Shown here: in pieces, positions 5,122-61,697 of the stretch | Numbering within the stretch: the stretch's first letter is position 1 | Layout of the letters: the number at the start of each line of letters is the position of its first letter | From: Candidatus Magasanikbacteria bacterium RIFOXYD1_FULL_40_23 | GTDB lineage: Bacteria > Patescibacteriota > Patescibacteriia > Magasanikbacterales > GWA2-37-8 | Direction of reading: 5' to 3' | Assembly: GCA_001783215.1 (NCBI GenBank) | Contig: MFRA01000005.1 | Coordinates: 29,845-93,844, forward strand | Length of the DNA: 64,000 nt | Program-made: the position numbers and the translations under genes | The notes under the pieces: generated by a model | Told to the model about the DNA's origin: nothing | The model's input: the letters and a program-made list of their open reading frames with translations, nothing else | Databases searched by the model: none

Positions 5122-5154
5122 GGGGTTGACATTTCGCTAATTTTAAACTAGTAT
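5122..5154 (+). promoter_or_regulatory. sigma70-like promoter for tig (GGGGTTGACA / 17 nt / TAGTAT)
   Basis: TTGACA at 5126-5131, TAGTAT at 5149-5154. Confidence 0.5.
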
Positions 5155-5181
5155 TACCTCGTTAAATATTTTAAAAAAGTT

Positions 5182-6471
5182 ATGCAATATACACTAAAAA
5201 ATCTAGAAAAATCCCAAGTAGAACTAACCATTACCGTAGAACCAAAGGATTACAAAAAACATTTAGAAGAGGCTGCTGTTCGCATTTCCGAACGCGCCGC
5301 TATTGCTGGCTTTCGCCCAGGCAAAGCCCCTTATGAAACCGTAAAACAACAGGTGGGTGAAATCCGAATCATAGAAGAAGCAATGCAAAGCATAGTAGAA
5401 AGAAATTTCTTTTTGGCTGCCAAAGAAGCTGCTTTAGATACTGTTGGCATGCCCCAAATTACTATTACCAAAATTGCTCCAGGCAATGATTTGGCCTTTA
5501 CTGCTACTGTAGCCCTGCTCCCAAAAATTAAATTGGGTGATTTGGCAACTGTAAAAGTAAAACATCAAGCCAAAGAAATTACCGACGAAGAAGTAGATAA
5601 AACTTTGAACGATTTAAAAAAGATGCAAACCAGAGAAATTCTAAAATCTGGTCCAGCTACCAAAGAAGATAAAATGGTAATTAACCTAGAAATGTTCTTG
5701 GACAAAGTACCAGTAGAAGGCGGACAAGCTCCAAACCACCAAGTATACTTGGGCGAACCTCACTATATTCCAGGACTAGCAGAACAATTAATTGGCTTAC
5801 AAAAAGATGAAACCAAAGAATTTACTCTCAAATTTCCAAAGGATCACTACCAAAAACATTTGGCTGGCAAAGATATTGAATTCAAAACAAAAGTACACGA
5901 TGTGTTTGAATTACAATATCCAGAAATAAATGAAGAATTTGCCAAATCTTTGGGCCAAGAAAGTATAGAAAAATTAAAAAATATTATAAAAGAAAACATG
6001 GCGGCTGAGCAGAAACACAAAGATGAACAAAAAATAGAAATAGAAATCTTGGATCAAATGATAGAAGCTAGTGAAATCTCCGAAATTCCAGACGTTCTAA
6101 TCAATACCGAAAAAAATAAAATCTTCCAAGAACTTCGCCGAAGTCTAGAAGCTCAAGGCATAGAGATGGAAAAATACTTAAAAGACTTAAAGAAAAGTGA
6201 AGAAGATATTTACAAGGACTTTACCGAACAAGCGATGCGCAGAGTAAAGGCCGCTCTTATCTCTCGCCAGATTGCGCTAGACAACAATATCAAAGCCGAG
6301 AAGTCCGAAATTGATGATGAAATAAAACAAATCAAAGCCGCATACCCAGATAATAAAAATGTAGAAGAAAATCTAAAAAAACCAGAAGTAATTGATACTC
6401 TAGCTCTAACAATTCAAAACAGAAAAGTAATGAGTTGGCTAAAGGAAAAAATTACAGATAAAAAATCCTAA
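5182..6471 (+). CDS. tig: trigger factor (ribosome-associated chaperone with PPIase domain)
   Basis: 429 aa. N-terminus MQYTLKNLEKSQVELTITVEPKDYKK...FRPGKAPYETVKQ is typical of trigger factor. Confidence 0.9.
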   Translation: MQYTLKNLEKSQVELTITVEPKDYKKHLEEAAVRISERAAIAGFRPGKAPYETVKQQVGEIRIIEEAMQSIVERNFFLAAKEAALDTVGMPQITITKIAPGNDLAFTATVALLPKIKLGDLATVKVKHQAKEITDEEVDKTLNDLKKMQTREILKSGPATKEDKMVINLEMFLDKVPVEGGQAPNHQVYLGEPHYIPGLAEQLIGLQKDETKEFTLKFPKDHYQKHLAGKDIEFKTKVHDVFELQYPEINEEFAKSLGQESIEKLKNIIKENMAAEQKHKDEQKIEIEILDQMIEASEISEIPDVLINTEKNKIFQELRRSLEAQGIEMEKYLKDLKKSEEDIYKDFTEQAMRRVKAALISRQIALDNNIKAEKSEIDDEIKQIKAAYPDNKNVEENLKKPEVIDTLALTIQNRKVMSWLKEKITDKKS

Positions 6472-8333: not shown

Positions 8334-8603
8334 TTAAGGGTTATCTATTCCACCCTTACTCCACGGATTACAGCGCAATATTCGCCAGGCCGCTAGTGCA
8401 ACACCCACCACTAAACCTCGTTTTCTTATTATTTCATATCCATACTCACTACAGGTGGGCGTAAACCTGCAATAGCCATAGGGGAATTGAGATTTAAACA
8501 GCCCATGATCTGGAGAAATTGTTTTTTGGTATATTTTTATCAAAAATAAGAGCGGCGTTCTTGGCAAGAATAAGAGAAAATCAAGGATTTTTTTTATTTT
8601 CAT
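8334..8603 (-). CDS. yidD: membrane protein insertion efficiency factor YidD
   Basis: [39 protein letters not shown]...[14 protein letters not shown]. The start may be 6 codons upstream at 8621. Confidence 0.8.
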
Positions 8604-8690
8604 ACAAAGTGAAGGAAACAAAAATTTATTTTTATTTCTGAGCGTGTATAGAAAATACCTTTAGTATTTTCATATTAAGCAAACTTTGGA

Positions 8691-8742: not shown

Positions 8743-9138
8743 TTATGCTTTCAAAACCTTCGCCTTACTTAATAAAACTTTTACTTCTTGGCTAATGGCT
8801 GCATAATCTTTGTTCAAAACATCCTTTTTGGCTACCACAAGTATATAGTAGCCGTTTTTTATAACCCCATCTTTGAGTAGAAGCCTTATTACCTCTCTTA
8901 TCTGCCTTCGCACCCTATTTCGCTTTACTGCACTTTTATGCACCTTTAACCCTGTAGAAATGGCTAGCTTTAGCTGATTTTGGAAATTAATTGGATCTTC
9001 TTTTTCTGGGAAGAACTTTGTATTTTTGGCTAATTCTAGTACTTTTATATCCAAAAACTGGCCATTTGCCCAATAGCCATGCTTTAGTACCAAGTTAAAA
9101 TCTCTAAGTTTTCGTAAACGATTGTCTTGTTGGAGCAT
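8743..9138 (-). CDS. rnpA: ribonuclease P protein component
   Basis: 131 aa, basic. The motif VHKSAVKRNRVRRQIRE is typical of RnpA. Synteny is rpmH-rnpA-yidD. Confidence 0.85.
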   Translation of the reverse strand: MLQQDNRLRKLRDFNLVLKHGYWANGQFLDIKVLELAKNTKFFPEKEDPINFQNQLKLAISTGLKVHKSAVKRNRVRRQIREVIRLLLKDGVIKNGYYILVVAKKDVLNKDYAAISQEVKVLLSKAKVLKA

Positions 9139-9274
9139 ATTATAAAATAGTATAACAAATTACCGTTGATTTGTCTTTGACAACACATCGCAGTCACGAC
9201 TCGCGTCGGGACGAGATCTGAATGCCCGAGTCATCCACAGATGGCGAGAGGCTGTTTGGCAAAGATAAATTAAT

Positions 9275-21943: not shown

Positions 21944-22389
21944 GTTGGACCTCCGTGTGTAGGGATTAAACAGCCTTTTTCAATTTCAAGCAAGTATATT
22001 GGCAATAGGGGGCTTCGCCGCATATATTCTCATTCACTCGGAAATAGTTTGGCAAACCAACTGTTTCACTCATTCACTTCGAATATTAAAAAAGGCGATC
22101 ACCCTCTAAATCAATTTGCATTGGTACAGAGGCGGATCGCCTTTACGTTGATACTACTAAGGGGAGGTACTTTCCCCTTTACGGGGAACATGTACTCTAC
22201 CTACCTTGGGTAGTATTAAAATTGACCTCAACCGCTTGTGGGTAGAGCCCTGGTGTCTTGACCCGAAGGTCTCGACTAATTAGGGTTGCCCGGGAAGAAG
22301 TTGGGCGTGCCATTGTTTCTCTGTTTTCTACAGATAACAGTTGCATACCCGCTTTCTCTTTTACAGTTTGAGAGTCATTATCTGCTTAG

Positions 22390-22640
22390 GAGCAGACTAG
22401 ATAAATTGTAGAATGAACTACATAAGTAAGTATACACTATTTTTAGTGTTTTGTCAACACGTTTGTATACACTAGTATACACAAATGCTTTTTTGGCTAA
22501 TCATAAACAAAATTATTATTTCTTATCCACATTGTAAGTGAGTTATACCCAGGCTTATCCACAGTTGTATAGACTTGTGTATACAAAAAAAGATTAGTTA
22601 TCCACTTTTCAGGTGTTTATAATTGACAAAATACAATTTT
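22390..22640. promoter_or_regulatory. dense secondary cluster of DnaA-box-like motifs (at least 7), 11 kb from dnaA
   Basis: TTATCCACA x2 (perfect), TTATCCACT, TTATACCCA, and TGTATACAC/TTGTATACA x3-4. Confidence 0.5.
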
Positions 22641-23251: not shown

Positions 23252-23290
23252 CGGCCGCCTTAATCCCTTCGGGATAGGGCGGCATTTTTA
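23252..23290 (+). terminator. rho-independent terminator
   Basis: GCCGCCTTAATCCCTTCGGGATAGGGCGGC ATTTTTAT. Confidence 0.7.
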
Positions 23291-23298
23291 TAATTGAA

Positions 23299-23465
23299 AT
23301 ATAGGTAAACCATATTTACTCGCACGCTCGGAAAAGTACATAAATGTACTTTTCGCTCACTTTGCTTGTAAATGAATGAGGAAATAGTTGGTTTACCAAA
23401 CTATTTCCGAGTGAATGAAATTATATGTAAAACTATATAATTGTAATATAGGTAAACCATATTTC
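23299..23465 (+). promoter_or_regulatory. copy G of the ~85-nt leader element family; not fused to a real gene and flanked by 19-bp perfect direct repeats
   Basis: ATATAGGTAAACCATATTT is repeated at 23299-23317 and 23447-23465. Between them are Box1 ACTCGCACGCTCGG, an 11-bp perfect IR GAAAAGTACAT/ATGTACTTTTC, Box2-like GCTCACTTTGC, then ATG opening a 22-codon ORF that contains a 10-bp IR GGAAATAGTT/AACTATTTCC. Confidence 0.5.
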
Positions 23466-29039: not shown

Positions 29040-29127
29040 GGAAGGGTGGCCGAGCGGTTTAAGGCAACAGTCTTGAAAACTGTCGTATCGAAAGGTACCG
29101 TGGGTTCGAATCCCACCCCTTCCGCCA
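29040..29127 (+). tRNA. tRNA-Ser (anticodon UGA), class II with long variable arm; CCA encoded
   Basis: GGAAGGGTGGCCGAGCGGTTTAAGGCAACAGTCTTGAAAACTGTC...GGTTCGAATCCCACCCCTTCCGCCA. The anticodon loop CTTGAAA gives UGA. Confidence 0.85.
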
Positions 29128-29300
29128 AATGTAGAGGGATGAGAAGTTTATTTTCAAGTTGAGCGAGAGGAAAGAAAATTTATCTTCTTTCCCGAGCGAA
29201 TGAAGAAAATACCTTAGTATTCCCCATAGCGGGGCGACGGGGCAAATTCCACCCCTTTTCTCTAGCGGTGTTAATAGCAAAAAGCTAACCCGATAACTTT

Positions 29301-32562: not shown

Positions 32563-32594
32563 TTTAATTAAATTATAGGGGTTAAAGCCAACAT

Positions 32595-32930
32595 ATGAGG
32601 AACTTTTTTCGAGTAGCTGCAAGCTTGGTAGTTATCATGCTCATGATAAGCATAATCAATTGGGTGAGCGATGATTATATTTTGGCCGGTATTTATATCT
32701 TGATTATTTTGGCAGACATGGCAGTAAGGAAAAGAAAACACGATACAGTAGCTTTGGTGTTTGGATTTTTTGCAATGACAATGTTTGAATATCTATTTGT
32801 CACTACCGGCGTAGAAACTTTTACTCGCCAAAGTTTGCTAGGAGTAATGCCAATTTGGTTGCCGATTCTGTGGTCGTATGGATTTGTTTCTATAAAAAGA
32901 GCAGTAGAGATTATAGAGAAAGGTAAATAA
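32595..32930 (+). CDS. hypothetical small membrane protein
   Basis: 111 aa, three predicted TM helices. Confidence 0.35.
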   Translation: MRNFFRVAASLVVIMLMISIINWVSDDYILAGIYILIILADMAVRKRKHDTVALVFGFFAMTMFEYLFVTTGVETFTRQSLLGVMPIWLPILWSYGFVSIKRAVEIIEKGK

Positions 32931-32977: not shown

Positions 32978-33364
32978 TTAAGATTTGTTTGCTTCCTGCG
33001 TATTTGCATAGTGTAGCATTCCATCTCGCATATATTCGGCCAGACCCACAGCCACATTTTCGTAGTTGGCTTTGAATCGCGGGTCGTCCACATACATTTT
33101 GGCCATGCCACGGTACATTTGTAAGTTTGGTTCATAAAATGCGCGCAGGCCGTCGTAGTGTCTGGTAATTAATTTTTGTACTTCTTCGCTTTTTGGAGCT
33201 AACCCATTTTTCATTGCGGCTGCAATTTCTTGGGTTAGCGCGCCAGCTTCTTCTAGTACTTTGGCCAGCCCAGCTTTGCCCATCTGTTTTACTCGTTCTT
33301 GGGATTGCTTAAAGGCCTCGGTATGGCCCCAGCGTTGTTTGGCTTCTTCGGTATATATTTCCAT
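32978..33364 (-). CDS. stand-alone TipAS-like antibiotic-recognition domain protein
   Basis: MEIYTEEAKQRWGHTEAFKQSQERVKQMGKAG... is a TipAS-like N-terminus. Leader element F immediately precedes it. Confidence 0.6.
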   Translation of the reverse strand: MEIYTEEAKQRWGHTEAFKQSQERVKQMGKAGLAKVLEEAGALTQEIAAAMKNGLAPKSEEVQKLITRHYDGLRAFYEPNLQMYRGMAKMYVDDPRFKANYENVAVGLAEYMRDGMLHYANTQEANKS

Positions 33365-33448
33365 ATTTGAAATGAGTGAAATAAGTAATCAAATGTTTTG
33401 GTTACTTATGAGCGAGTGAGAATATATGCGGCTTTAGCCCCTATCTCT
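33365..33448 (-). promoter_or_regulatory. leader element F (-10-like TATATT / Box1 CTCACTCGCTC / hairpin ATAAGTAA..TTACTTAT / Box2 CACTCATTTC / aaATG) in front of the TipAS gene
   Basis: Gene-sense reading: ATAGGGGCTAAAGCCGCATATATTCTCACTCGCTCATAAGTAACCAAAACATTTGATTACTTATTTCACTCATTTCAAATATG. Its distal part also encodes the last 12 codons of the MerR ORF. Confidence 0.6.
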
Positions 33449-33825
33449 TCTTTGGAGAAATTACCGTATAGTTCCTCGTCTTGCATAGTGGTTTCTTTGT
33501 TAATTTTTTTAATAGTCTTATCTATGGTGTTTATTAGTCCGTCTAGCCGGTTTCGCTTTAGTTGGATTAGGCCCCTTTGGTCATTTAGGGCTGTTTTCAT
33601 ATCAAAGCGAGGGGAGGATAAAATCCGCTTTATTTTCTCTATAGAAAAGTCTAATTCCCGGAAAAACAGGATTTGCTGTAATCTTAGCAATTCCGGTTCT
33701 TCATAGTGTCTATAGCCATTACCTTGTGTTCGGGCAGGGCTAAGCAGACCCACCTGATCATAGTAATGGAGGGTCCGGACGCTTACTTTGGCTAAATTGG
33801 CTAATTGTTGCACAGAATAAGACAT
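33406..33825 (-). CDS. MerR-family HTH transcriptional regulator with a coiled-coil linker but no effector domain (like the N-half of TipAL)
   Basis: MSYSVQQLANLAKVSVRTLHYYDQVGLLSPARTQGNGYRHY is a MerR HTH. Start trimmed from the track ORF 33406-33888. Confidence 0.65.
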   Translation of the reverse strand: MSYSVQQLANLAKVSVRTLHYYDQVGLLSPARTQGNGYRHYEEPELLRLQQILFFRELDFSIEKIKRILSSPRFDMKTALNDQRGLIQLKRNRLDGLINTIDKTIKKINKETTMQDEELYGNFSKEEIGAKAAYILTRS

Positions 33826-33889
33826 ATTGTAGATTTGAAATTGATAGGCGTCGACCCTGTATGTTGGCTTACATACACACCATACCACA

Positions 33890-36832: not shown

Positions 36833-37163
36833 CAGCGTAATGAAATGAAGCGAGGAAGAGGAGAGACCAAACTGCTTTGGTCGCGAGTGGGGTTTGAACG
36901 CCGGAGCGATGTTTGGCGACGCAGGCGAGCGAGCTAAACCGCGAGGCGGCCCGCCCGGATGAATCCGTTCGGACGGGTGGCTAGACAAAATTTTCGGAAG
37001 AAAATTTTAGTCGAAGCAAAATCCCACCCCCCCCCGCTTTTTAATAGTATTTTATAGGTTTATATAGTAAACTTATAAAATATCTTTAATCTTTATAGGT
37101 TTTATACTAAAAGTTATAAATTAACCTTGACTTTTATAGGTTTTTGTGGTATAATATTTTCAT

Positions 37164-37889
37164 ATGAATGAAATAAAATTACGAATAGGCGAAGCTGCAA
37201 AGATACTGGGAGTATCGGAGCAAACCATGCGAAACTGGGAAAAATCTGGCAAACTTCGTGCCGAGCGAAGTAGAGGGAATCAGCGCTTTTATTTATTAAA
37301 AGACCTCAAAATTTTTTCCCTTGATTTAAAAGTATTGGCTTTAGCATGGGCTACAAGTGCTTTACCACCAGAACTTCCTAGCGAATATTACTGTGAGCGA
37401 CCAGATCGTTTTACAAGTCGAGTGGCCAGGATGGGTGCCGAACTTCAGAAGGCTGGAGGAGTGTCAGAAGATTTAGCATCTCTTCTAACCCTTGTTGCTG
37501 GGGAAATTGGTGATAATTCTTTTGCTCACAATGTTGGTAATTGGCCGGATCTTGCGGGTGTGTTTTATGGATACAACATAGATAAGCGAATTATAGTAAT
37601 TGCAGACCGAGGACGTGGTGTGAAAACAACACTTCAGCAAGTCAGACCCAATCTTGCAACGGATATAGAAGCTCTTAATGTAGCTTTTACAGAAATTGTT
37701 TCTGGAAGAAATCCGGAAAAGCGTGGCAACGGACTCAAAGTGGTTCGTAAAGTGACAGAGTCAAAAGAAATCGGTCTTTTATTCCGTTCGGGTATCGGGC
37801 TCGTTACCATACCCATTCATCCCGGACCGATGCGAATAACGATGACTGATGGAAATGTTCGCGGAACATATGCTGTTATACAATTTTAA
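37164..37889 (+). CDS. fusion of a MerR/Xis-type HTH with a GHKL (HATPase_c, RsbW-like anti-sigma kinase) domain
   Basis: HTH: MNEIKLRIGEAAKILGVSEQTMRNWEKSGKL. ATPase N-box-like GEIGDNSFAHN and G-box-like IADRGRGV. Confidence 0.5.
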   Translation: MNEIKLRIGEAAKILGVSEQTMRNWEKSGKLRAERSRGNQRFYLLKDLKIFSLDLKVLALAWATSALPPELPSEYYCERPDRFTSRVARMGAELQKAGGVSEDLASLLTLVAGEIGDNSFAHNVGNWPDLAGVFYGYNIDKRIIVIADRGRGVKTTLQQVRPNLATDIEALNVAFTEIVSGRNPEKRGNGLKVVRKVTESKEIGLLFRSGIGLVTIPIHPGPMRITMTDGNVRGTYAVIQF

Positions 37890-41441: not shown

Positions 41442-41490
41442 TGTAGATAAAATTTAGAATGGTAGAATTATTATTAATTATAAAAATGTA

Positions 41491-41572
41491 TATAGGGGCT
41501 AAAGCCACATATATACTCATTCGCTCGTAAATAATAAAACAAGTTTGATTATTTAACTCACTCATTTCGTAT
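41491..41572 (+). promoter_or_regulatory. leader element A (TATATA / Box1 ACTCATTCGCTCG / hairpin / Box2 ACTCACTCATTTCG / tatATG) in front of the LUD-domain gene
   Basis: TATAGGGGCTAAAGCCACATATATACTCATTCGCTCGTAAATAATAAAACAAGTTTGATTATTTAACTCACTCATTTCGTATATG. Confidence 0.6.
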
Positions 41573-42190
41573 ATGCAATATAATGAATTAGCAACTAAAG
41601 AGGCCTTACAACAAACTATAGAAGCGCTTGGTAAAAAAAATATAGAAGCGTTTGCAGTAGAGAGTGGCGCAGACGCACTAGCAAAAGTAAAAGAATTGGT
41701 TCCGGCTGGTGCATCGATAATGAATGGCGCTTCTCGTACGCTAGAGCAAATTGGTTTTGTGGAACATCTAAAATCCGGCACTCATGGTTGGAACAATCTT
41801 CACGAAGGAATTTTGGCCGAAACAGATCCAGCCAAACAAGCAATGCTGCGCAAACAAGCAGTATTGTCGGATTATTATGTAGCTAGCGTGCATGCGGTAG
41901 CCCAAACCGGCGAATTACTTATTGCTTCTAACACAGGTAGTCAATTACCTCATATTGTTTTTACTTCTCCTAATGTTATTTTTGTCGTGGGAGCACAAAA
42001 GATTATGCCAACCCTAGCCGACGCTCTTAGTCGTTTGGAAGAATATGTAAAGCCGCTCGAAGACAAACGTGCGCAAGAGGCATATGGTTCCGGCACGGCC
42101 GACAATAAAATTGTAATCTTTAAAGGCGAAAATCCAATGATGGGCAGAAAAGTGAAAGTTATTTTTGTGAATGAAAAGCTTGGGTTTTAA
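41573..42190 (+). CDS. LUD-domain (lactate-utilisation LutB/C-like, YkgG family) protein
   Basis: 205 aa. The ASRTLEQIG ... VVGAQKI pattern is compatible with DUF162/LUD. Confidence 0.45.
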   Translation: MQYNELATKEALQQTIEALGKKNIEAFAVESGADALAKVKELVPAGASIMNGASRTLEQIGFVEHLKSGTHGWNNLHEGILAETDPAKQAMLRKQAVLSDYYVASVHAVAQTGELLIASNTGSQLPHIVFTSPNVIFVVGAQKIMPTLADALSRLEEYVKPLEDKRAQEAYGSGTADNKIVIFKGENPMMGRKVKVIFVNEKLGF

Positions 42191-42271
42191 GTATAAGGGC
42201 TTTGTCGTATACATACTCATTCGTTCGTATAAAGTTAAATATTTTTAACTTTATACTCACTCATTTCGAAT
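42191..42271 (+). promoter_or_regulatory. leader element B in front of the DUF45 metallohydrolase gene
   Basis: GTATAAGGGCTTTGTCGTATACATACTCATTCGTTCGTATAAAGTTAAATATTTTTAACTTTATACTCACTCATTTCGAATATG, with a perfect palindromic spacer AAGTTAAATATTTTTAACTT. Confidence 0.6.
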
Positions 42272-42841
42272 ATGCAAAACAGGATAGAGTTGGGTAAAAG
42301 AATTATAAATTATACTCTTCGTATAAGCAGGCGAGCTAGACATCTACGATTGGCTGTCTATAATGGCGGTGATTTTATCGTCACCGCCCCTCGGCACTTG
42401 AGCTTGCCCGCCATAGAGCGGTTTATTATTCGTAAATCCAAATGGGTGCTAGAAAAAATAGATAAACTGATTTCTCTGCCCAAGCCAGTAAAAATAAAAA
42501 GTTCCAGGATTGATTATATAAAATACAAAGCGGTAGCCAGAAAAATTGCCAGAGACAAGATGGGATACTTTAATAAGTTTTATGGGCATAGCTGGAAGAA
42601 TATTTCTATAAAAAATACAAAGACTCGCTGGGGTAGCTGTTCCAAGAAGGGGAATATTAACTTTAATTACAAAATAGCGCTTCTGCCTGAAAAGTTGGTG
42701 GATTATATAATCGTGCACGAGCTGTGCCATTTGGCGCAGTTTAACCACTCGCGAAAGTTTTGGAGTTTGGTAGCCCAAGCAGTCCCCGACCATAAACAGA
42801 TTAGAACAGAGCTTCGCAAGATTGGGCTAACTGCAGGCTAA
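42272..42841 (+). CDS. YgjP/DUF45-family zinc metallohydrolase (WLM-like HExxH)
   Basis: IIVHELCHLAQFNHS. Confidence 0.65.
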   Translation: MQNRIELGKRIINYTLRISRRARHLRLAVYNGGDFIVTAPRHLSLPAIERFIIRKSKWVLEKIDKLISLPKPVKIKSSRIDYIKYKAVARKIARDKMGYFNKFYGHSWKNISIKNTKTRWGSCSKKGNINFNYKIALLPEKLVDYIIVHELCHLAQFNHSRKFWSLVAQAVPDHKQIRTELRKIGLTAG

Positions 42842-44273: not shown

Positions 44274-44660
44274 TTAATTGAAATTTATATTAAAACTAAA
44301 CATTCCCATAGAGCACATTCCGCGAATGCTGGTGCCGGCCTTTTGCGCGGGCACATCTACCAAAGTCTCTCCGGAAGGTGGTAAATTTTTTCTATAATTT
44401 AGTGCTGGGATTACGAGAGATGAAGAGCAATCGAAAGTTCCTCTGGTATCTATCTTTATTACCGTGGGCATATCGGCTTTGGCATTGGTAATTCGTGGAG
44501 TATATCCACCCTTGGCGTTTATAGTTATAATCTGTTTGCCGTCTTTGATTTTTATATTATTGGCGCTAGGACCGGTATCTTTTTCTCCGCCAGAAAATAG
44601 TATAGCGCCGGTAATTACGGCAGCCACGAAGATAAAAATGGCAATAAAAGTTTTTTTCAT
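44274..44660 (-). CDS. secreted cupredoxin-like (PF13473-like) protein, copper-island member
   Basis: Signal/TM, then IKIKDGKQIITINAKGG...IRGMCSMGMFSFNINF. Leader element C precedes it. Confidence 0.3.
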   Translation of the reverse strand: MKKTFIAIFIFVAAVITGAILFSGGEKDTGPSANNIKIKDGKQIITINAKGGYTPRITNAKADMPTVIKIDTRGTFDCSSSLVIPALNYRKNLPPSGETLVDVPAQKAGTSIRGMCSMGMFSFNINFN

Positions 44661-44750
44661 ATGCGAAGTGAGTGAGTAAAATATTTAGCTTACTAAAGTA
44701 TTTTCGAACGAACGAGTATGTATGTGGCTTCAGCCCCTATATTAAAAATT
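44661..44750 (-). promoter_or_regulatory. leader element C in front of the cupredoxin-like gene
   Basis: Gene-sense: AATATAGGGGCTGAAGCCACATACATACTCGTTCGTTCGAAAATACTTTAGTAAGCTAAATATTTTACTCACTCACTTCGCATATG. Confidence 0.6.
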
Positions 44751-45768: not shown

Positions 45769-45840
45769 TGTCATCCTGAACGGAGTGAAGGATCCCTTAC
45801 ACCCAAATGAGAGGGATTCTTCGCTTTGCTCAGAATGACA
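45769..45840. repeat. inverted pair of GTCATYCTGA...GGATC units (family R) between copA and the HMA-DsbD_2 gene
   Basis: TGTCATCCTGAACGGAGTGAAGGATCCCT ... GAGGGATTCTTCGCTTTGCTCAGAATGACA. Confidence 0.6.
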
Positions 45841-45907
45841 GTTAAAGTTAATTTTTAAATCGATTTATCTACTACATAGTGTAGTAGCAATAATTATGTT
45901 TGTCAAC

Positions 45908-48570: not shown

Positions 48571-48612
48571 ATAATAGGATGAGATTATTTATAAATAATC
48601 TCATCCTATTAT
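48571..48612. repeat. 42-bp perfect palindrome (ATAATAGGATGAGATTATTTA | TAAATAATCTCATCCTATTAT)
   Basis: Every position pairs with its partner. Sits between the Met-rich gene 3' end and the csoR promoter. Confidence 0.8.
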
Positions 48613-48630: not shown

Positions 48631-48969
48631 TTATTTACTCATCATATTTTTCATTGTCCCGCTGCTTTCTGATGCTTTTATATTTTCTTTCATATATTTT
48701 TCTCCCATCATTTCCATATCTTTTCCTTTGGAAACAGCCCCATCATTTTTTAATTCCATTCCCATTTCTTGCATCATTGAGCCGCCTGTTTTCATCATAG
48801 TAGCCATTGTTTGAATAGAGGCTGATTGTTCTTTCATCATGGCAATTGAATCCTGCAGCTCTTTGGTTTGAGCGCTATTATTATTTATATTTTTTCCAGA
48901 TGAATAACCAATGCCTCCGCCAACAGCGAGGGCAATAATTATTCCGATGGTGAATGTTGTAGTTTTCAT
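48631..48969 (-). CDS. Met-rich secreted protein (putative periplasmic Cu(I)-binding, MxM/MMxxM motifs)
   Basis: Signal peptide, then MMKEQSASIQTMATMMKTGGSMMQEMGME...MEMMGEKYM...MKNMMSK. Confidence 0.45.
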   Translation of the reverse strand: MKTTTFTIGIIIALAVGGGIGYSSGKNINNNSAQTKELQDSIAMMKEQSASIQTMATMMKTGGSMMQEMGMELKNDGAVSKGKDMEMMGEKYMKENIKASESSGTMKNMMSK

Positions 48970-49043
48970 ATGTGAAATGAGTGAATATAAAGTTAAATGT
49001 TTTTAACTTTATATGAGCGAATAAGTATATACCTTAGTATATT
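48970..49043 (-). promoter_or_regulatory. leader element D in front of the Met-rich protein gene
   Basis: Gene-sense: AGGTATATACTTATTCGCTCATATAAAGTTAAAAACATTTAACTTTATATTCACTCATTTCACATATG. Confidence 0.55.
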
Positions 49044-52501: not shown

Positions 52502-54259
52502 TTACATTTCCATTCCACCCATATCTTTATCCTTGCCCGACTTAGCAGGAGTAGAACCGGCGCCCTCTTTTGGAGCAGTTTTTATAAGATCATCAAGAAA
52601 CATATTTTCTTTTATTTCCGGTGTGGGATTTTGTATATAACGGTCACCATTCTTAAGTCCGGCATATACTTCCACCACAGCTCCGAGAGTGCGGCCAATG
52701 GTTATTTCTTGCGCAAATATTCTATCGGCTTCTGATATTGCCCATACTACCGGTGTTCCTTTTTCGTTCCAAAGAATTGAGGAATATTTAATTAACTCAA
52801 CAGCAGAGCTAGAAGGAGAAAGTACTCTTATAGAGGATCCCACGGGCCATTTTGTTGATTCTATAAAAATAGCATCAGCCATATATGAACCATCATCAAG
52901 AGAACTACCCACGCCTACAAGCCGTACCTTTTTTATATCGGTTCCAAAACCGGGACGAACGATAGAAAGCAGCTCTCCGATTTTTGGTTTTTGTATATTA
53001 TTTGGCATGCTTATTCTTACTAGTTCATTGCCATTATCATTTGCAGTTACAGTAGCTACTGGCATGCCCGGACCCACAAACTCACCTGGTTTTTTCATAA
53101 TACTAGATATGACACCGCTATTTGGCGCAACTATGGAGTAGCCGCCGCTGATTGAGCCCCTAACACTCGCATAAGCTGTTTCATTGGCGACGACATCTCC
53201 TTCCGACATGGCTAATTCTTTTTCTAACTCGGCAATCATTGCGTCTATCTCAGCCAAGGTATCAATGGATTCTCTTTGTGTATTAACACTTTCCAGTTCC
53301 ATGCTTTTAATTTCACCAAGCATGGCGACAAATTCTGACTGATCTTCAACCAGCATTTTTTTGAGTGTTTCCAGATCGGCTTCCATTAATGTTTCCATAT
53401 CAGCAATAGATGCGTTTGCAAGTTTAATTGCGCTATCAAAGTATAGAGATCCCGAGCGCTCTATTTCTTTTAGATCAAACAATGCCTTGTAAGTAATGTT
53501 GGGGAAATTATTACGCAAATTTTGATCTAAGATTCCGAATGTAGGTTTAAGTGGGATGCTAAAAAATAATCCGGCGGAGGGAATTCTACTTTGGCCATAC
53601 ATCATCGAAAAAGTTTTTGTGATTGATCCATTCAAAACCACTTGCGCCAATTTCTTTTTTGATTCAATTGAAGATAGCAAAATATTTCCGCTTGCGGACG
53701 TGTTTGATCCGATTAAGCCTATTTTTTGTTTATTTGAGCTTTCTGTATCTATACGAAGCTTTTGCAGTTGTGCAATTCTTTTGGCTGTATAAGTGCGTAG
53801 AGCCTCTACGCTCGTACGTGCTTCGGATAACATCTGAGATTTTTCCGAGAGCATGCTTACCATCTCCGGTGTTTGTGGCGGTCGTGAAAGTTTTCCGATA
53901 ATTTGACCTGCGGTGACGCGCTCGCCAATACGCACATACCACCTAGAGATAGTTCCCTCACGATCGGGTTGCACCTGTAAATTATTAAGAGAAATAATTT
54001 CTCCGGGCCATGAATTGTTTGAGGTGCCAGTAATTGAAAAATCCTCTTTTCCAACTATGGCTACTACTGGGCTGTCTGTAATTAGGTTGCTACTAGCAGA
54101 TTTACTATCTGCTATATTTGCTGATGCGCTTTTGCTTATAGAATAGAAAGCAAAGACCCCGGTAGCTATAACTAGCAAGATTGAAACAGATGCTATTGTA
54201 AGCGCCCGTTTTTCTAGCAGCTTAACACTCTGTATTAGGTTTTTTATTTTTTCTTTCAT
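52502..54259 (-). CDS. cusB: RND periplasmic adaptor (membrane fusion protein, CusB-like) with a Met-rich C-terminus
   Basis: N-terminal TM, biotinyl/lipoyl-like GEIISLN...GQIIGKL, C-terminal ...KDMGGMEM. Confidence 0.7.
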   Translation of the reverse strand: MKEKIKNLIQSVKLLEKRALTIASVSILLVIATGVFAFYSISKSASANIADSKSASSNLITDSPVVAIVGKEDFSITGTSNNSWPGEIISLNNLQVQPDREGTISRWYVRIGERVTAGQIIGKLSRPPQTPEMVSMLSEKSQMLSEARTSVEALRTYTAKRIAQLQKLRIDTESSNKQKIGLIGSNTSASGNILLSSIESKKKLAQVVLNGSITKTFSMMYGQSRIPSAGLFFSIPLKPTFGILDQNLRNNFPNITYKALFDLKEIERSGSLYFDSAIKLANASIADMETLMEADLETLKKMLVEDQSEFVAMLGEIKSMELESVNTQRESIDTLAEIDAMIAELEKELAMSEGDVVANETAYASVRGSISGGYSIVAPNSGVISSIMKKPGEFVGPGMPVATVTANDNGNELVRISMPNNIQKPKIGELLSIVRPGFGTDIKKVRLVGVGSSLDDGSYMADAIFIESTKWPVGSSIRVLSPSSSAVELIKYSSILWNEKGTPVVWAISEADRIFAQEITIGRTLGAVVEVYAGLKNGDRYIQNPTPEIKENMFLDDLIKTAPKEGAGSTPAKSGKDKDMGGMEM

Positions 54260-54372
54260 AATCGAAGTGAGTGAATTAAATAATGTAGGAGAAAATAATG
54301 AGCTTGCTCAATTATTTTCGAGTGGATTATTTATGAGCGAATGAGATTATATGGGCCTTAGCCTCTATAAAT
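54260..54372 (-). promoter_or_regulatory. leader element E (perfect TATAAT / Box1 CTCATTCGCTC / long hairpin / Box2 CACTCACTTCG / attATG) in front of cusBA
   Basis: Gene-sense: TATAGAGGCTAAGGCCCATATAATCTCATTCGCTCATAAATAATCCACTCGAAAATAATTGAGCAAGCTCATTATTTTCTCCTACATTATTTAATTCACTCACTTCGATTATG. Confidence 0.6.
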
Positions 54373-57885: not shown

Positions 57886-57895
57886 CTGGTTTAGT

Positions 57896-57968
57896 TGTCA
57901 TTCTGAGTAAAGCGAAGAATCCCTCTTGTCCGAACGAAAGGGATCCTTCACTCCGTTCAGGATGACAG
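57896..57968. repeat. inverted pair of GTCATTCTGA...GGATC units (family R) after trhO, overlapping the 5' end of the next ORF
   Basis: TGTCATTCTGAGTAAAGCGAAGAATCCCTC ttgtccgaacgaa AGGGATCCTTCACTCCGTTCAGGATGACA. Same two arm sequences as at 45769-45840 but in swapped order. Confidence 0.6.
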
Positions 57969-60293: not shown

Positions 60294-61697
60294 GTGCTAT
60301 TTTTCAACGGCAACAAGGCAATATTTAATGATTTTTGTTTCGTAGACAGTCGCAAGCTTTCTTGTTATAGTATGGTAGTTATTTATGGGTTTATGTTGAT
60401 TTTGGCAGTGGCTTATTTTTTACTTTTTACCTGTGTAGCTTTGCATAATTTTCGCTGGGCTATTTTTGCTTTTATCCTCTTACTACCTTCGTATCTTATA
60501 CGTTTTGATGTTTTTTATTTTAAAAAGATAGTTTTTCCTTCCACAGTTTTGGAACTGTCTTTTGGGGCGATTTTCTTGGTTTGGCTTATCAAATATAGTA
60601 GGACAGATTGGTCAAAAATTTGGGCTATAGCCAAAAAACATATCTGGTTCTTTGTCGCCTTTGATTTATTTTTTATATCCTCTGTAGTGAGTATTTTTGT
60701 TAGTGATATGCCCATACCATCGCTGGGCGAGTGGCGCGCGTTTTTCTTGGAGCCAATGATTTTCTTTTTAATTTTAATTGGAAGAAAGGAAATTTTTAAA
60801 ACAAAAGATTTATTTTTGGCTTTGGCTTTTTCTACCCTGAGTATTAGTGTTTTTGCAGTTGCGCAAAAGTTTACTGGTTGGGGGATAGCTACGCCAGAAT
60901 GGTCGGCTGCAGCCACACGACGAGTAACTGCGTTTTTTAGTTCCCCCAATGCAGTTGGTTTGTATCTGGCACCTGTTTTTATGTTAATAGTCGCAGTAAT
61001 AGCTTCTTATGGACGAGACATTAAAGGTTTATTACGACGTCCATCGTATTTGGGGATTGTTGCGACAGCACTTTTTTGTGTATTAGCCATAACGTTTACC
61101 AAATCTCAGGGTACGTGGATAGGTTTGGGTGCGGGAATGCTGACATTTTTGTTTTTTGTAGATTATAAAAAATTGGCTATTGCTTTGGCTGTGGCTGGTG
61201 CAGTGTTTGCTTTGGTGGTGCCATCTATGCGACAGGCAGTCTTGTTTCAAGACCAAGCAAATCAGAATCGCCTAAGACTTTGGGGTTACTCCTGGACATT
61301 TTTGGAAGCATCTCCAAAAAACTTTGTTTTGGGTACAGGAGTGCGTCAGTTTTTTAGAAAAATACAAAAACCGTACTATGACAAGTATGTTATGGAGCGA
61401 CTTATCTATCCGCATAATATATTTCTTAATTTTTGGACAGAGATCGGTTTGGTGGGCATGCTAGCAGTTATGGGGGTACTTGCCTATGTTTTTTGTTTGG
61501 CAAATAGAATCAGAAAAAATAATAAATTAATTGGAGCTGGGCTTATGTCTGCGCTTGTTGTTTTGGTAGTGCATGGGCTAGTCGATGTGCCTTATTTTAA
61601 AAACGACTTAGCGTTTTTGTTTTGGATTTTAATGACGACGGTGTTTATCTTGTATGAAAATATATATAAAAGCGAAGCCGAACTCATACGAGGATAA
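60294..61697 (+). CDS. O-antigen ligase / Wzy_C-family polytopic membrane protein
   Basis: 12+ TM helices. Periplasmic loop ...RLWGYSWTFLEASPKNFVLGTG... and YPHNIFLNFWTEIGLVG. The start may be an internal Met. Confidence 0.6.
   Translation: MLFFNGNKAIFNDFCFVDSRKLSCYSMVVIYGFMLILAVAYFLLFTCVALHNFRWAIFAFILLLPSYLIRFDVFYFKKIVFPSTVLELSFGAIFLVWLIKYSRTDWSKIWAIAKKHIWFFVAFDLFFISSVVSIFVSDMPIPSLGEWRAFFLEPMIFFLILIGRKEIFKTKDLFLALAFSTLSISVFAVAQKFTGWGIATPEWSAAATRRVTAFFSSPNAVGLYLAPVFMLIVAVIASYGRDIKGLLRRPSYLGIVATALFCVLAITFTKSQGTWIGLGAGMLTFLFFVDYKKLAIALAVAGAVFALVVPSMRQAVLFQDQANQNRLRLWGYSWTFLEASPKNFVLGTGVRQFFRKIQKPYYDKYVMERLIYPHNIFLNFWTEIGLVGMLAVMGVLAYVFCLANRIRKNNKLIGAGLMSALVVLVVHGLVDVPYFKNDLAFLFWILMTTVFILYENIYKSEAELIRG

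Follow-up and report, generated by a model that had tools for sequence, protein, structure and literature searches.

A 64,000-nt stretch of contig MFRA01000005.1 (assembly GCA_001783215.1, positions 29,845 to 93,844, forward strand) from Candidatus Magasanikbacteria bacterium RIFOXYD1_FULL_40_23, hereafter the window, raises the question of why one short DNA module stands directly ahead of the start codons of unrelated genes. A first-pass annotation had read the module as the dedicated leader of a metal and stress regulon. We found instead that it is inserted DNA, which lands directly 5′ of (W)TATG or TATA independent of gene function. Surviving copies lie mostly right before the ATG of a gene or at tRNA nucleotide 1, close relatives differ in whether they have the module, and tandem arrays and degenerate relics occur. 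It can also enter an ORF and turn an internal ATG into the start codon. The explanation that we favor, with moderate confidence, is a small, non-autonomous, orientation-specific mobile repeat of Patescibacteria (the Candidate Phyla Radiation, CPR) that becomes a 5′ leader lacking a Shine-Dalgarno (SD) site.

Anatomy and copies of the module

Read toward the gene, the module consists of a mini-hairpin (HP1), CATATAWW, Box1 (CTCATTCGYTCR), a variable hairpin (HP2) that is flush with both boxes, Box2 ((A)CTCACTCATTTCG; consensus given as TCACTCATTTCG, in a further form CGAAAUGAGUGAG), NAT (more loosely NNT) and ATG. The core is ~70 nt and reaches ~80–95 nt with HP1, making a repeat of ~70–95 nt. 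A covariance model built from 68 copies (R1) and run on the window with filters off recovered 11 copies, of which 10 are strong (34–84 bits, E < 1e-6) and one, copy K, is weak (24.7 bits). The seven copies first reported are all real, with the positions and anatomy then described, but copies G, I, J and K had been missed. An unbiased repeat search of the window recovered the family independently, and Box1 (≤2 mismatches) occurs 19 times in the window compared to 4.5 ± 2.0 in shuffled sequences, with 0/100 shuffles reaching 19. In copies A–F the module ends exactly 3 nt (NAT) ahead of the ATG of an open reading frame (ORF), and copies B and C take up the whole 81 nt from the upstream stop codon to the next ATG. 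Pfam assignments of the genes behind fused copies (LUD, YgjP/DUF45, cupredoxin, AcrB-type CusA with an HlyD-type partner, and TipAS) agree with the labels given at first pass.

Copy A: 41488..41575, + strand, 83.9 bits; LUD-domain gene, ATG 41573-41575 preceded by TAT
Copy A parts: + strand, HP1 41488-41515 (GTATATAGGGGC-TAAA-GCCACATATATA), Box1 41516-41527, HP2 41528-41556, Box2 41557-41569
Copy B: 42191..42274, + strand, 67 bits; whole gap from the LUD stop codon 42188-42190 to the YgjP/DUF45 ATG at 42272
Copy B parts: + strand, Box1 42216-42227, HP2 42228-42255, Box2 42256-42268
Copy C: 44658..44741, − strand, 74.5 bits; whole gap from the DsbD_2/HMA stop codon 44744-44742 to the cupredoxin-like ATG at 44660
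Copy C parts: − strand, Box1 44716-44705, HP2 44704-44677, Box2 44676-44664
Copy D: 48967..49042, − strand, 62.9 bits; ahead of a Met-rich ORF, ATG at 48969
Copy E: 54257..54369, − strand, 60.6 bits; ahead of a cusB-like gene, ATG at 54259
Copy F: 33362..33444, − strand; 80-nt insertion inside the TipAS coding sequence, start codon 33364 being the former internal Met15
Copy G: 22005..22087, + strand, 74.1 bits; orphan with intact boxes and ATT instead of ATG
Copy H: 23299..23375, + strand, 39.3 bits; degenerate, the orphan of the first-pass annotation; overlaps copy I head-to-head at Box2
Copy I: 23366..23447, − strand, 46 bits; orphan without ATG, head-to-head with copy H
Copy J: 29148..29222, − strand, 42 bits; degenerate orphan; tRNA-Ser (29040-29127), on the opposite strand, has its 3′ end ~20 nt away
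Copy K: 8601..8670, − strand, 24.7 bits, E about 5e-4; weak and degenerate, ends at ATG 8603-8601, downstream of rnpA

The mini-hairpin described as common to all copies (GGGGCTAAAGCC-like) is conserved as a structure but not as a sequence, since copy D carries TATACTAAGGTATA, with a differing HP1 of ATATAC-TAAG-GTATAT. Near-identical HP2 sequences are found in copies on unrelated genes, with 96% identity between copies D and B and 91% over 47 nt between copies I and G, and HP2 subtypes are common to different genomes. Copy E has the same HP2 outer stem as copy A and contains within HP2 an additional nested hairpin (54333-54276).

Other features adjoin some of these copies. A 29-nt direct repeat (TATAATTGWAATATAGGTAAACCATATTT, 97% identical; 23289-23317 and 23436-23464) flanks the H/I pair, with an IMP dehydrogenase gene (23536) downstream. 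The 260 nt directly 3′ of copy G (22086-22345, + strand) contain no ORF, reach ~50% GC where the genome has 40%, and have a predicted fold of −108.9 kcal/mol (z = −7.5; 0/200 shuffles as stable), with no Rfam match and no homologue among the loci compared; they are a candidate novel structured RNA beginning at the 3′ edge of copy G. An HP1-like hairpin (TATAGGGGTTAAAGCCAACAT) at 32574-32597 (+ strand) abuts ATG 32595 (gene 32595..32930) without Box1, HP2 or Box2, and may be a relic from loss of the core between TAT repeats, or a mini-variant.

Distribution and insertion

We scanned one genome per species with the pattern CTCATTCGYTCR-N18-48-TCAYTCAYTTC, which contains no ATG, and used pattern-matched or orthologue loci (numbered L001 etc.) for comparisons. 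The scan returned at least 106 loci, almost all from CPR metagenome-assembled genomes (MAGs). Among the matches listed, ~95 are true copies, several genomes hold 5–9 loci apiece, and the hosts are Magasanikbacteria, Parcubacteria, Uhrbacteria, Portnoybacteria, Berkelbacteria and unclassified Patescibacteria MAGs; ATG follows exactly 4 nt past the final TTC in 73 of 110. Within 748 kb of loci R1 gave 127 matches, and because 92 of them (72%) carry ATG at the model position, placement is extremely non-random relative to genes, in agreement with the earlier expectation that copies are not scattered without regard to them. ATG-registered copies nearly always open an ORF of ≥50 aa (89/92, median 191 aa), and in two loci the module abuts nucleotide 1 of a tRNA (tRNA-Ile in L050, tRNA-Val in L093). 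The notion that ATG-less copies precede known RNA genes was rejected, as it is true only for these two tRNAs. Copies also lie inside operons, as 32 of 87 (37%) are wedged flush against or inside the end of an upstream ORF on the same strand. Tandem arrays (e.g., three copies at a 72-nt period ahead of an ftsA-like gene in L092), degenerate relics and Box2-only remnants all occur.

The family matches no Rfam entry, as first supposed. At the gathering threshold the window gave only two tRNAs and 20 loci gave tRNAs, a 23S rRNA and an L10 leader, while E-value mode on copies A/B and G–I gave chance matches only (mir-626, E = 4.3; RF_site2, E = 0.88). Literature searches found nothing relevant on the box sequences or on miniature inverted-repeat transposable elements (MITEs) in Patescibacteria, and no repeat described from bacteria is known to us to keep register with start codons to the single nucleotide. 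The module is thus an undescribed repeat that matches no Rfam family and no paper found. A phage-borne element was considered and rejected, the four viral pattern matches being chance matches without hairpins. Some module contigs are labelled 'uncultured Gammaproteobacteria' (L010, L013, L015, L019, L025, L033) or 'Candidatus Udaeobacter' (L014, L045, L048); these have 38–51% GC (mostly 38–43%) and CPR-like gene starts, and the MAG labels are probably wrong or the bins mixed. In L094/L041, L005, L015, L019, L055 and L091, Box2-only remnants or whole extra modules lie directly upstream of complete copies, and their Box2-GWW-TAT-HP1 junction is as expected for head-to-tail multimers or a circular intermediate.

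Proteins encoded behind 67 copies fall into 104 Pfam families with no common theme, and downstream genes include glycosyltransferases, response regulators, ssb, recA, glpX, topA, pgk, eno, ligA, TatD, frr, atpB, rpsK and ftsA. This breadth across CPR, housekeeping genes and tRNAs included, contradicts the first-pass proposal of a copper or stress regulon, here taken as one whose leader is a thermosensor, a metal sensor or the binding site of one regulator and controls translation by sequestering AUG in an outer helix. Four of the six fused window copies do precede metal-resistance genes, but that association is local to this window, and orphans and tandem copies keep intact boxes. Nor is the module conserved with its gene. 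Across 80 loci holding orthologues of the copy-A LUD gene (56–81% identity, 400 kb) there are two modules in all and none (0/80) at that gene; in the closest of them, L107, the LUD gene has an ordinary AT-rich leader and a module sits on a different gene. Among orthologue pairs in module-bearing loci ~25 are discordant for the module, including pairs at 96, 85, 83 and 83% amino acid identity, compared to ~6 that share it, which speaks against a stably inherited dedicated leader. The regulon interpretation is already contradicted by these comparisons, and we give it very little credence.

Base-level comparison of filled and empty sites showed what is gained. L058 and L092 have ~99% identical flanks and differ by ~95 nt (HP1, Box1, HP2, Box2, GAT) that L058 carries in addition; the empty site in L092 reads TGGTATAAT-TAAGAGGC-TATGG, and the insert stands between the same extended −10 box and the same TATGG. 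L075 and L039 differ by 86 nt inserted before ATTATAA, with no ATG. A third site is empty in the window itself, and the homologous starts in L023 and L062 are filled exactly there by modules of different subtypes. The right junction is always ...TTTCG(WW) followed by TATG, ATATG or ATTATA.

Empty site: 61645..61656, + strand; ATCTTG followed by TATG, the ATG at 61654 lying inside the 3′ end of ORF 60294..61697
Stranded N-terminal TipAS codons: 33445..33486, − strand; 14 codons (MQDEELYGNFSKEE) that run into copy F and reach a stop TAA at 33408-33406

Polarity is fixed by copy F. The relatives L187 and L188 read ATG CAA GAC GAA GAA TTA TAC GGC AAT TTT TCC AAA GAA GAT ATG GAT as one unbroken frame, the insertion point lying within the codon GAT after its G, and the window has the same 14 codons, then the 80-nt module, then ATG GAA ATA. 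The 14 codons are conserved in at least eight relatives, where they are contiguous with the rest of the gene; left stranded in the window, they identify the module as the derived state. Copy F converted the internal Met15 of TipAS into the start codon. P0014 starts at the same Met as the copy F gene and has no module. Upstream, a MerR-family ORF (33406-33888, − strand) lacks the stop codon of its relative in L188 owing to one extra A in an A-run, and is read in frame across the stranded TipAS codons as far as copy F, so that it encodes 160 aa compared to about 107. A split MerR-TipAS fusion was rejected as the origin of copy F, since TipAS genes of ~140 aa normally stand alone and L188 has MerR as a gene of its own upstream. 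In the filled/empty pairs ~80–95 nt are thus inserted just 5′ of TATG, at sites between an existing −10 box and ATG, within overlapping genes and within the TipAS coding sequence.

Direct repeats flank both tRNA copies, where the first 7–9 nt of the tRNA recur at the other edge of the module. In L050 the repeat is CGGTCTG with a distance of 76 nt (P about 0.007), and in L093 it is GGCTCT(T)AG with a distance of 78 nt (P about 0.03). A general 6–7-nt target-site duplication, formed by arms a and a'', was tried as a rule and found to be weakly supported. Between the orthologous copies in L094 and L041, HP2 diverges much faster than the flanks.

An alternative is a site-specific recombination site, similar to an integron attC or a dif module, that marks gene cassettes and uses the boxes as recombinase sites. 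Hairpins conserved in structure rather than sequence, the filling of stop-to-start space by copies B and C, the different HP2 'cassettes' at the same site in relatives (L023/L062, L094/L041) and the lack of conserved gene order around the LUD gene are all compatible with it. However, the boxes are direct rather than inverted repeats, and alignment A2 contains no RYYYAAC/GTTRRRY cores. Spacing is fixed to the downstream gene's ATG, not to the upstream stop codon or the 3′ end of a cassette; housekeeping genes carry the module in otherwise syntenic contexts, and filled/empty pairs keep the gene in place, with only the module differing. No integrase was found among the ~50 window ORFs scanned. 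We regard a recombination site as highly improbable.

Helices, promoters and translation start

Covariation was assessed on a MAFFT alignment of 68 copies made from sequence alone and not fitted to structure. Paired cells amounted to 90.3%, compared to 74.5% in shuffles (0/500) and 35–50% with partners slid, in support of the original observation that stems differ between copies yet stay complementary. Changes on both sides occurred in all 12 HP2 pairs, and double changes in 16 of 20 pairs overall. An additional outer helix, P1, is formed by UAUAWWC before Box1 and GWWUAUG after Box2; its two variable positions pair in 75% and 91% of copies, compared to 42% and 47% in shuffles, it also covaries in GC-rich variants (L050, L053, L064), and its pairing stops exactly at the G of AUG. 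Because P1 and HP2 are covarying helices around them, Box1 and Box2 represent the two strands of a conserved pyrimidine-rich internal loop.

In most predicted minimum-energy RNA folds HP1 and HP2 form two distinct hairpins, and the boxes and AUG are mostly unpaired. P1, which has 7 weak pairs, is rarely present in them. As P1 can pair AUG and competes with HP1, whose 3′ arm overlaps the 5′ arm of P1 over ATAT, a regulatory switch of the kind invoked for a regulon leader is formally possible, but the weakness of P1 argues against it. A robust riboswitch-like alternation of HP1 and P1 was likewise rejected, because the overlap is only ATAT and P1 is seldom in the minimum-energy fold. No intrinsic terminator is present at the modules, where HP1 is followed by CATATAWW and no T-run, and a terminator scan reports none there.

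Conserved structure with changing stem sequence had been taken as the signature of an RNA element, a conclusion that does not follow here. HP2 is equally stable on both strands (−7.82 kcal/mol sense, −7.85 kcal/mol antisense) and G·U pairs are few (~3% of pairs; 40 compared to 25 out of ~1340), so covariation is no proof of RNA function. Maintenance of the HP2 palindrome at the DNA level is as possible as maintenance at the RNA level.

The hexamer ahead of Box1 had been proposed as a −10 box, with transcription starting in Box1. A portable promoter of this type, in which CATATAWW serves as the −10, or some other part of the module recruits RNA polymerase, each copy would mainly drive transcription of the gene that it abuts, and Box1-HP2-Box2 forms the 5′ untranslated region (UTR), would account for the same module ahead of unrelated genes; putative mobile promoters, reportedly defined by Matus-Garcia and colleagues in 2012, are likewise the same upstream segment before unrelated genes. 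TATAWW is nearly invariant at positions 1–4, and a promoter would be needed where copies face a divergent gene (16/87) or come after a gap of >60 nt (23/87). Copy E has a perfect TATAAT ahead of Box1 and a terminator (54422-54403) only ~30 nt upstream of HP1, making an internal promoter (−10 only) plausible from its sequence. However, the last two bases of the hexamer covary with bases before ATG; position 6, a W that covaries with column 64 in the distal arm, is A or T with about equal frequency, which does not suit a −10 box. A conserved −35 is missing, and in copies A–E the module hexamer is not part of any full sigma-70 match. Tandem arrays and flush intercistronic copies need no promoter. 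The module TATAWW is a poor −10 box, and we consider a portable promoter unlikely. Sigma-54, extracytoplasmic function and T7-like promoter readings of the boxes were ruled out on spacing or register, by reasoning from sequence.

Canonical promoters do occur in the clade (TTGACA-N17-TAGTAT ahead of window gene 5182; TGGTATAAT in L058 and L092), and immediately 5′ of HP1 there is an excess of −10 boxes, which are often extended. L058, L012, L090, L092 and about 13 others have an independent TATAAT or TGnTATAAT close upstream of the module. In those copies this position makes the module a 5′ UTR with HP1 at or near the transcript 5′ end, and the module is probably transcribed as an SD-less 5′ UTR in many copies. 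The shared 5′ UTR of the first-pass annotation is therefore retained as probable in many copies, with transcription from the upstream boxes; TATAWT as the −10 with a start in Box1 is not supported, and copy E alone may use an internal promoter.

Most window genes lack an SD site (e.g., regions 37140-37166, 8743-9160 and 5130-5184), and several have a TATAAT-like box 7–12 nt before ATG, such as GGTATAATATTTTCAT-ATG at 37164, which suggests that leaderless or short-leader mRNAs are widespread in the clade. The SD-poor window genes fit the published loss of the anti-SD motif in roughly half of Parcubacteria (Tsurumaki et al. 2022, PMC9297842). Pairing of the boxes with an altered 16S 3′ tail was also considered, and none of the loci compared contains a 16S gene. 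As essential genes tolerate the insert, the Box2-AUG arrangement would be compatible with SD-independent initiation or would promote it.

The helices and the apparent leaderless habit together bear on another alternative, an RNA processing or insulator element in which P1, the Box1/Box2 loop and HP2 form a cleavage signal, RNase III-like or self-cleaving. Cleavage at the 3′ edge would free near-leaderless mRNAs and tRNA 5′ ends, and it could coexist with mobility and keep the insert harmless. With a helix on either side of a conserved internal loop, the module has a layout similar to that of the RNase III sites of phage T7, and P1 covaries, GC-rich variants included. The 3′ edge coincides with functional RNA 5′ ends (AUG at +4; tRNA nucleotide 1 in L050 and L093), the 37% of copies that are intercistronic lie flush with the upstream stop codon, and the clade appears leaderless or short-leader and SD-less, with the anti-SD missing from about half of Parcubacteria (PMC9297842). 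Against this, the module resembles none of the ribozymes or processing motifs in Rfam, its conserved loop consists almost wholly of pyrimidines, an unusual make-up for a catalytic core, folding predicts the weak P1 in only some copies, and G·U usage has no strand bias. RNase P protein is present, such that tRNA ends need no special device. A processing element as the primary explanation is improbable in our judgment.

Proposed mobility and comparison with known systems

For the mobile repeat that we favor, the following course can be proposed. Transcribed from a host promoter or co-transcribed in an operon, the insert would become a 5′ leader, a step in which we have moderate confidence, and the SD-less genes of the clade, with their very short leaders, would provide the setting. 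Within the leader, HP1 and HP2 would fold on their own and leave the pyrimidine-rich Box2 and AUG unpaired; SD-independent initiation would continue, and insertion would be tolerated or useful. More speculatively, the invariant boxes and folded hairpins would most likely be the recognition features of a mobilizing enzyme acting on single-stranded DNA or RNA, the internal TATA(WW)C might pair with the target TATG or tRNA 5′ end and guide target choice (in L050, CTAGACC vs. GGTCTG), and cleavage at the 3′ edge might restore a short leader.

Several observations weigh against mobility. The module has no terminal inverted repeats, as its 5′ end (the TATAGGGGC-like HP1 arm) and 3′ end (...CATTTCGWW) are not complementary, and the sole inverted repeat near its ends is P1, which is internal to HP1. 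AT-rich filled/empty pairs share only TAT at both junctions, a 6-nt flanking repeat is found in 11 of 78 copies compared to about 4.7 expected, and base-level filled/empty pairs number only four. No transposase, integrase or reverse transcriptase lies beside copies or among the ~50 window ORFs scanned against Pfam (mostly 21–60 kb), which also include no HUH Y1 transposase or RAYT, and no autonomous parent, with a gene between Box1 and Box2, turned up in about 1.2 Mb. The boxes are essentially invariant across several CPR phyla, and orthologous copies may show stronger conservation than the coding sequence beside them (L001/L071), which is more like a host-selected function than a purely selfish element. 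The single-nucleotide ATG registration in 72% of copies might likewise reflect function rather than targeting, and copies may have spread by gene conversion or illegitimate recombination, not by transposition.

A more elaborate version of the mobile repeat, which we offer tentatively and regard as doubtful, is a guide-directed mobile 'gene-start cassette'. It would pair its internal TATA(WW)C-type segment with the first bases of a gene or RNA, insert there and supply a self-contained SD-less leader, possibly restoring a leaderless 5′ end by cleavage at its 3′ edge, and would have been co-opted by anti-SD-less Patescibacteria to create, separate or re-head cistrons. The new start that copy F introduces inside TipAS would be an example.

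Much of bacterial diversity belongs to the Patescibacteria, a group with reduced ribosomes and hardly any cultured members. The module represents a natural experiment on how such bacteria initiate translation, as the same 70–95 nt stand ahead of unrelated essential genes (recA, eno, pgk, topA, ftsA and others) that evidently still work, and Box2-AUG thereby identifies a leader acceptable to CPR ribosomes. Gene structure is also shown to evolve in this way, with genes given a new head or split at an internal ATG, and annotation is put at risk by mis-called starts and C-terminal extensions that read into the repeat. Being compact and highly specific, the sequence can serve to mark a subset of CPR lineages, and an enzyme that recognizes its target by base pairing, if real, would be of interest to biotechnology.

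The window contains other repeats. A second palindromic family of ~75 nt (GTCATCCTGAACGGAGTGAAGGATCCCT ... AGGGATTCTTCGCTTTGCTCAGAATGAC), unrelated to the module, has two intergenic copies (45769-45846 and 57890-57967) that are inverted relative to each other and 86% identical. An inverted pair (TTTGTATACACTAGTATACACAAATG) lies at 22462-22487 and 22562-22587 with a 74-nt spacer, the MerR-type gene at 37164 is preceded by a 35-nt tandem-like direct repeat (37069-37144), and just 3′ of the Met-rich gene there is a perfect 42-nt palindrome (ATAATAGGATGAGATTATTTA joined to TAAATAATCTCATCCTATTAT, 48571-48612).

Among known systems, the module is similar in behavior to MITE, REP or Correia-type repeats, with some resemblance to hairpin elements derived from IS200/IS605, and it fails the defining tests for a classical MITE, attC, a sigma-70 promoter, a terminator and every Rfam family. 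With classical MITEs it shares short, non-coding, multi-copy sequence with presence/absence polymorphism but not terminal inverted repeats. Correia elements of Neisseria (CREE), ERIC/IRU, RUP and BOX are short non-coding, multi-copy, strain-polymorphic repeats, often located between promoter and gene or between cistrons, that are transcribed into hairpins and can alter expression; Correia elements supply promoters and RNase III sites. The module resembles CREE and MITE-like repeats in being short, non-coding, multi-copy and polymorphic and in its promoter-gene or intercistronic position. It differs in lacking terminal inverted repeats or a clear TA duplication, in its fixed gene-ward orientation with ATG registration in 72% of copies, in its two invariant pyrimidine-rich direct-repeat boxes around a hypervariable hairpin, and in its restriction to CPR genomes among the matches listed.

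The PATEs of IS200/IS605 and the REP/REPIN repeats, mobilized by HUH Y1 transposases and RAYTs, have no terminal inverted repeats; sub-terminal hairpins are recognized as structures, insertion takes place in a set orientation beside a short fixed target, the target or cleavage site is base-paired by an internal segment, and non-autonomous copies outnumber enzyme genes. HP1 and HP2, the lack of terminal inverted repeats and oriented insertion beside a short fixed target are similar in the module, and pairing of TATA(WW)C with TATG would be comparable to the pairing of the internal segment with its target in PATEs. In contrast, the conserved flank of the module is 3′ on the gene sense strand, there is no GTAG-type REP head, and the 7–9-nt flanking direct repeats at its tRNA copies are not expected for IS200/IS605.

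Rickettsia palindromic elements are small palindromic repeats inserted in frame into genes and translated. The module likewise is a small palindromic repeat that enters genes without destroying them and becomes part of the expressed product, but instead of being translated it divides the gene or stands at its head, and a new start results (copy F). Like putative mobile promoters, it is one upstream segment common to unrelated genes within and between genomes, whereas it often stands downstream of an independent host −10, has a poor hexamer of its own, and has a fixed ATG junction and a hairpin architecture. Finally, the RNase III signals of phage T7 early mRNA are found between cistrons, just before the next one, and are built from a lower stem, a conserved internal loop and an upper stem. 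The module shares this place and the stem-loop-stem layout and by analogy might be cleaved, but its loop sequences are unrelated, and it is chromosomal, mobile and CPR-wide.

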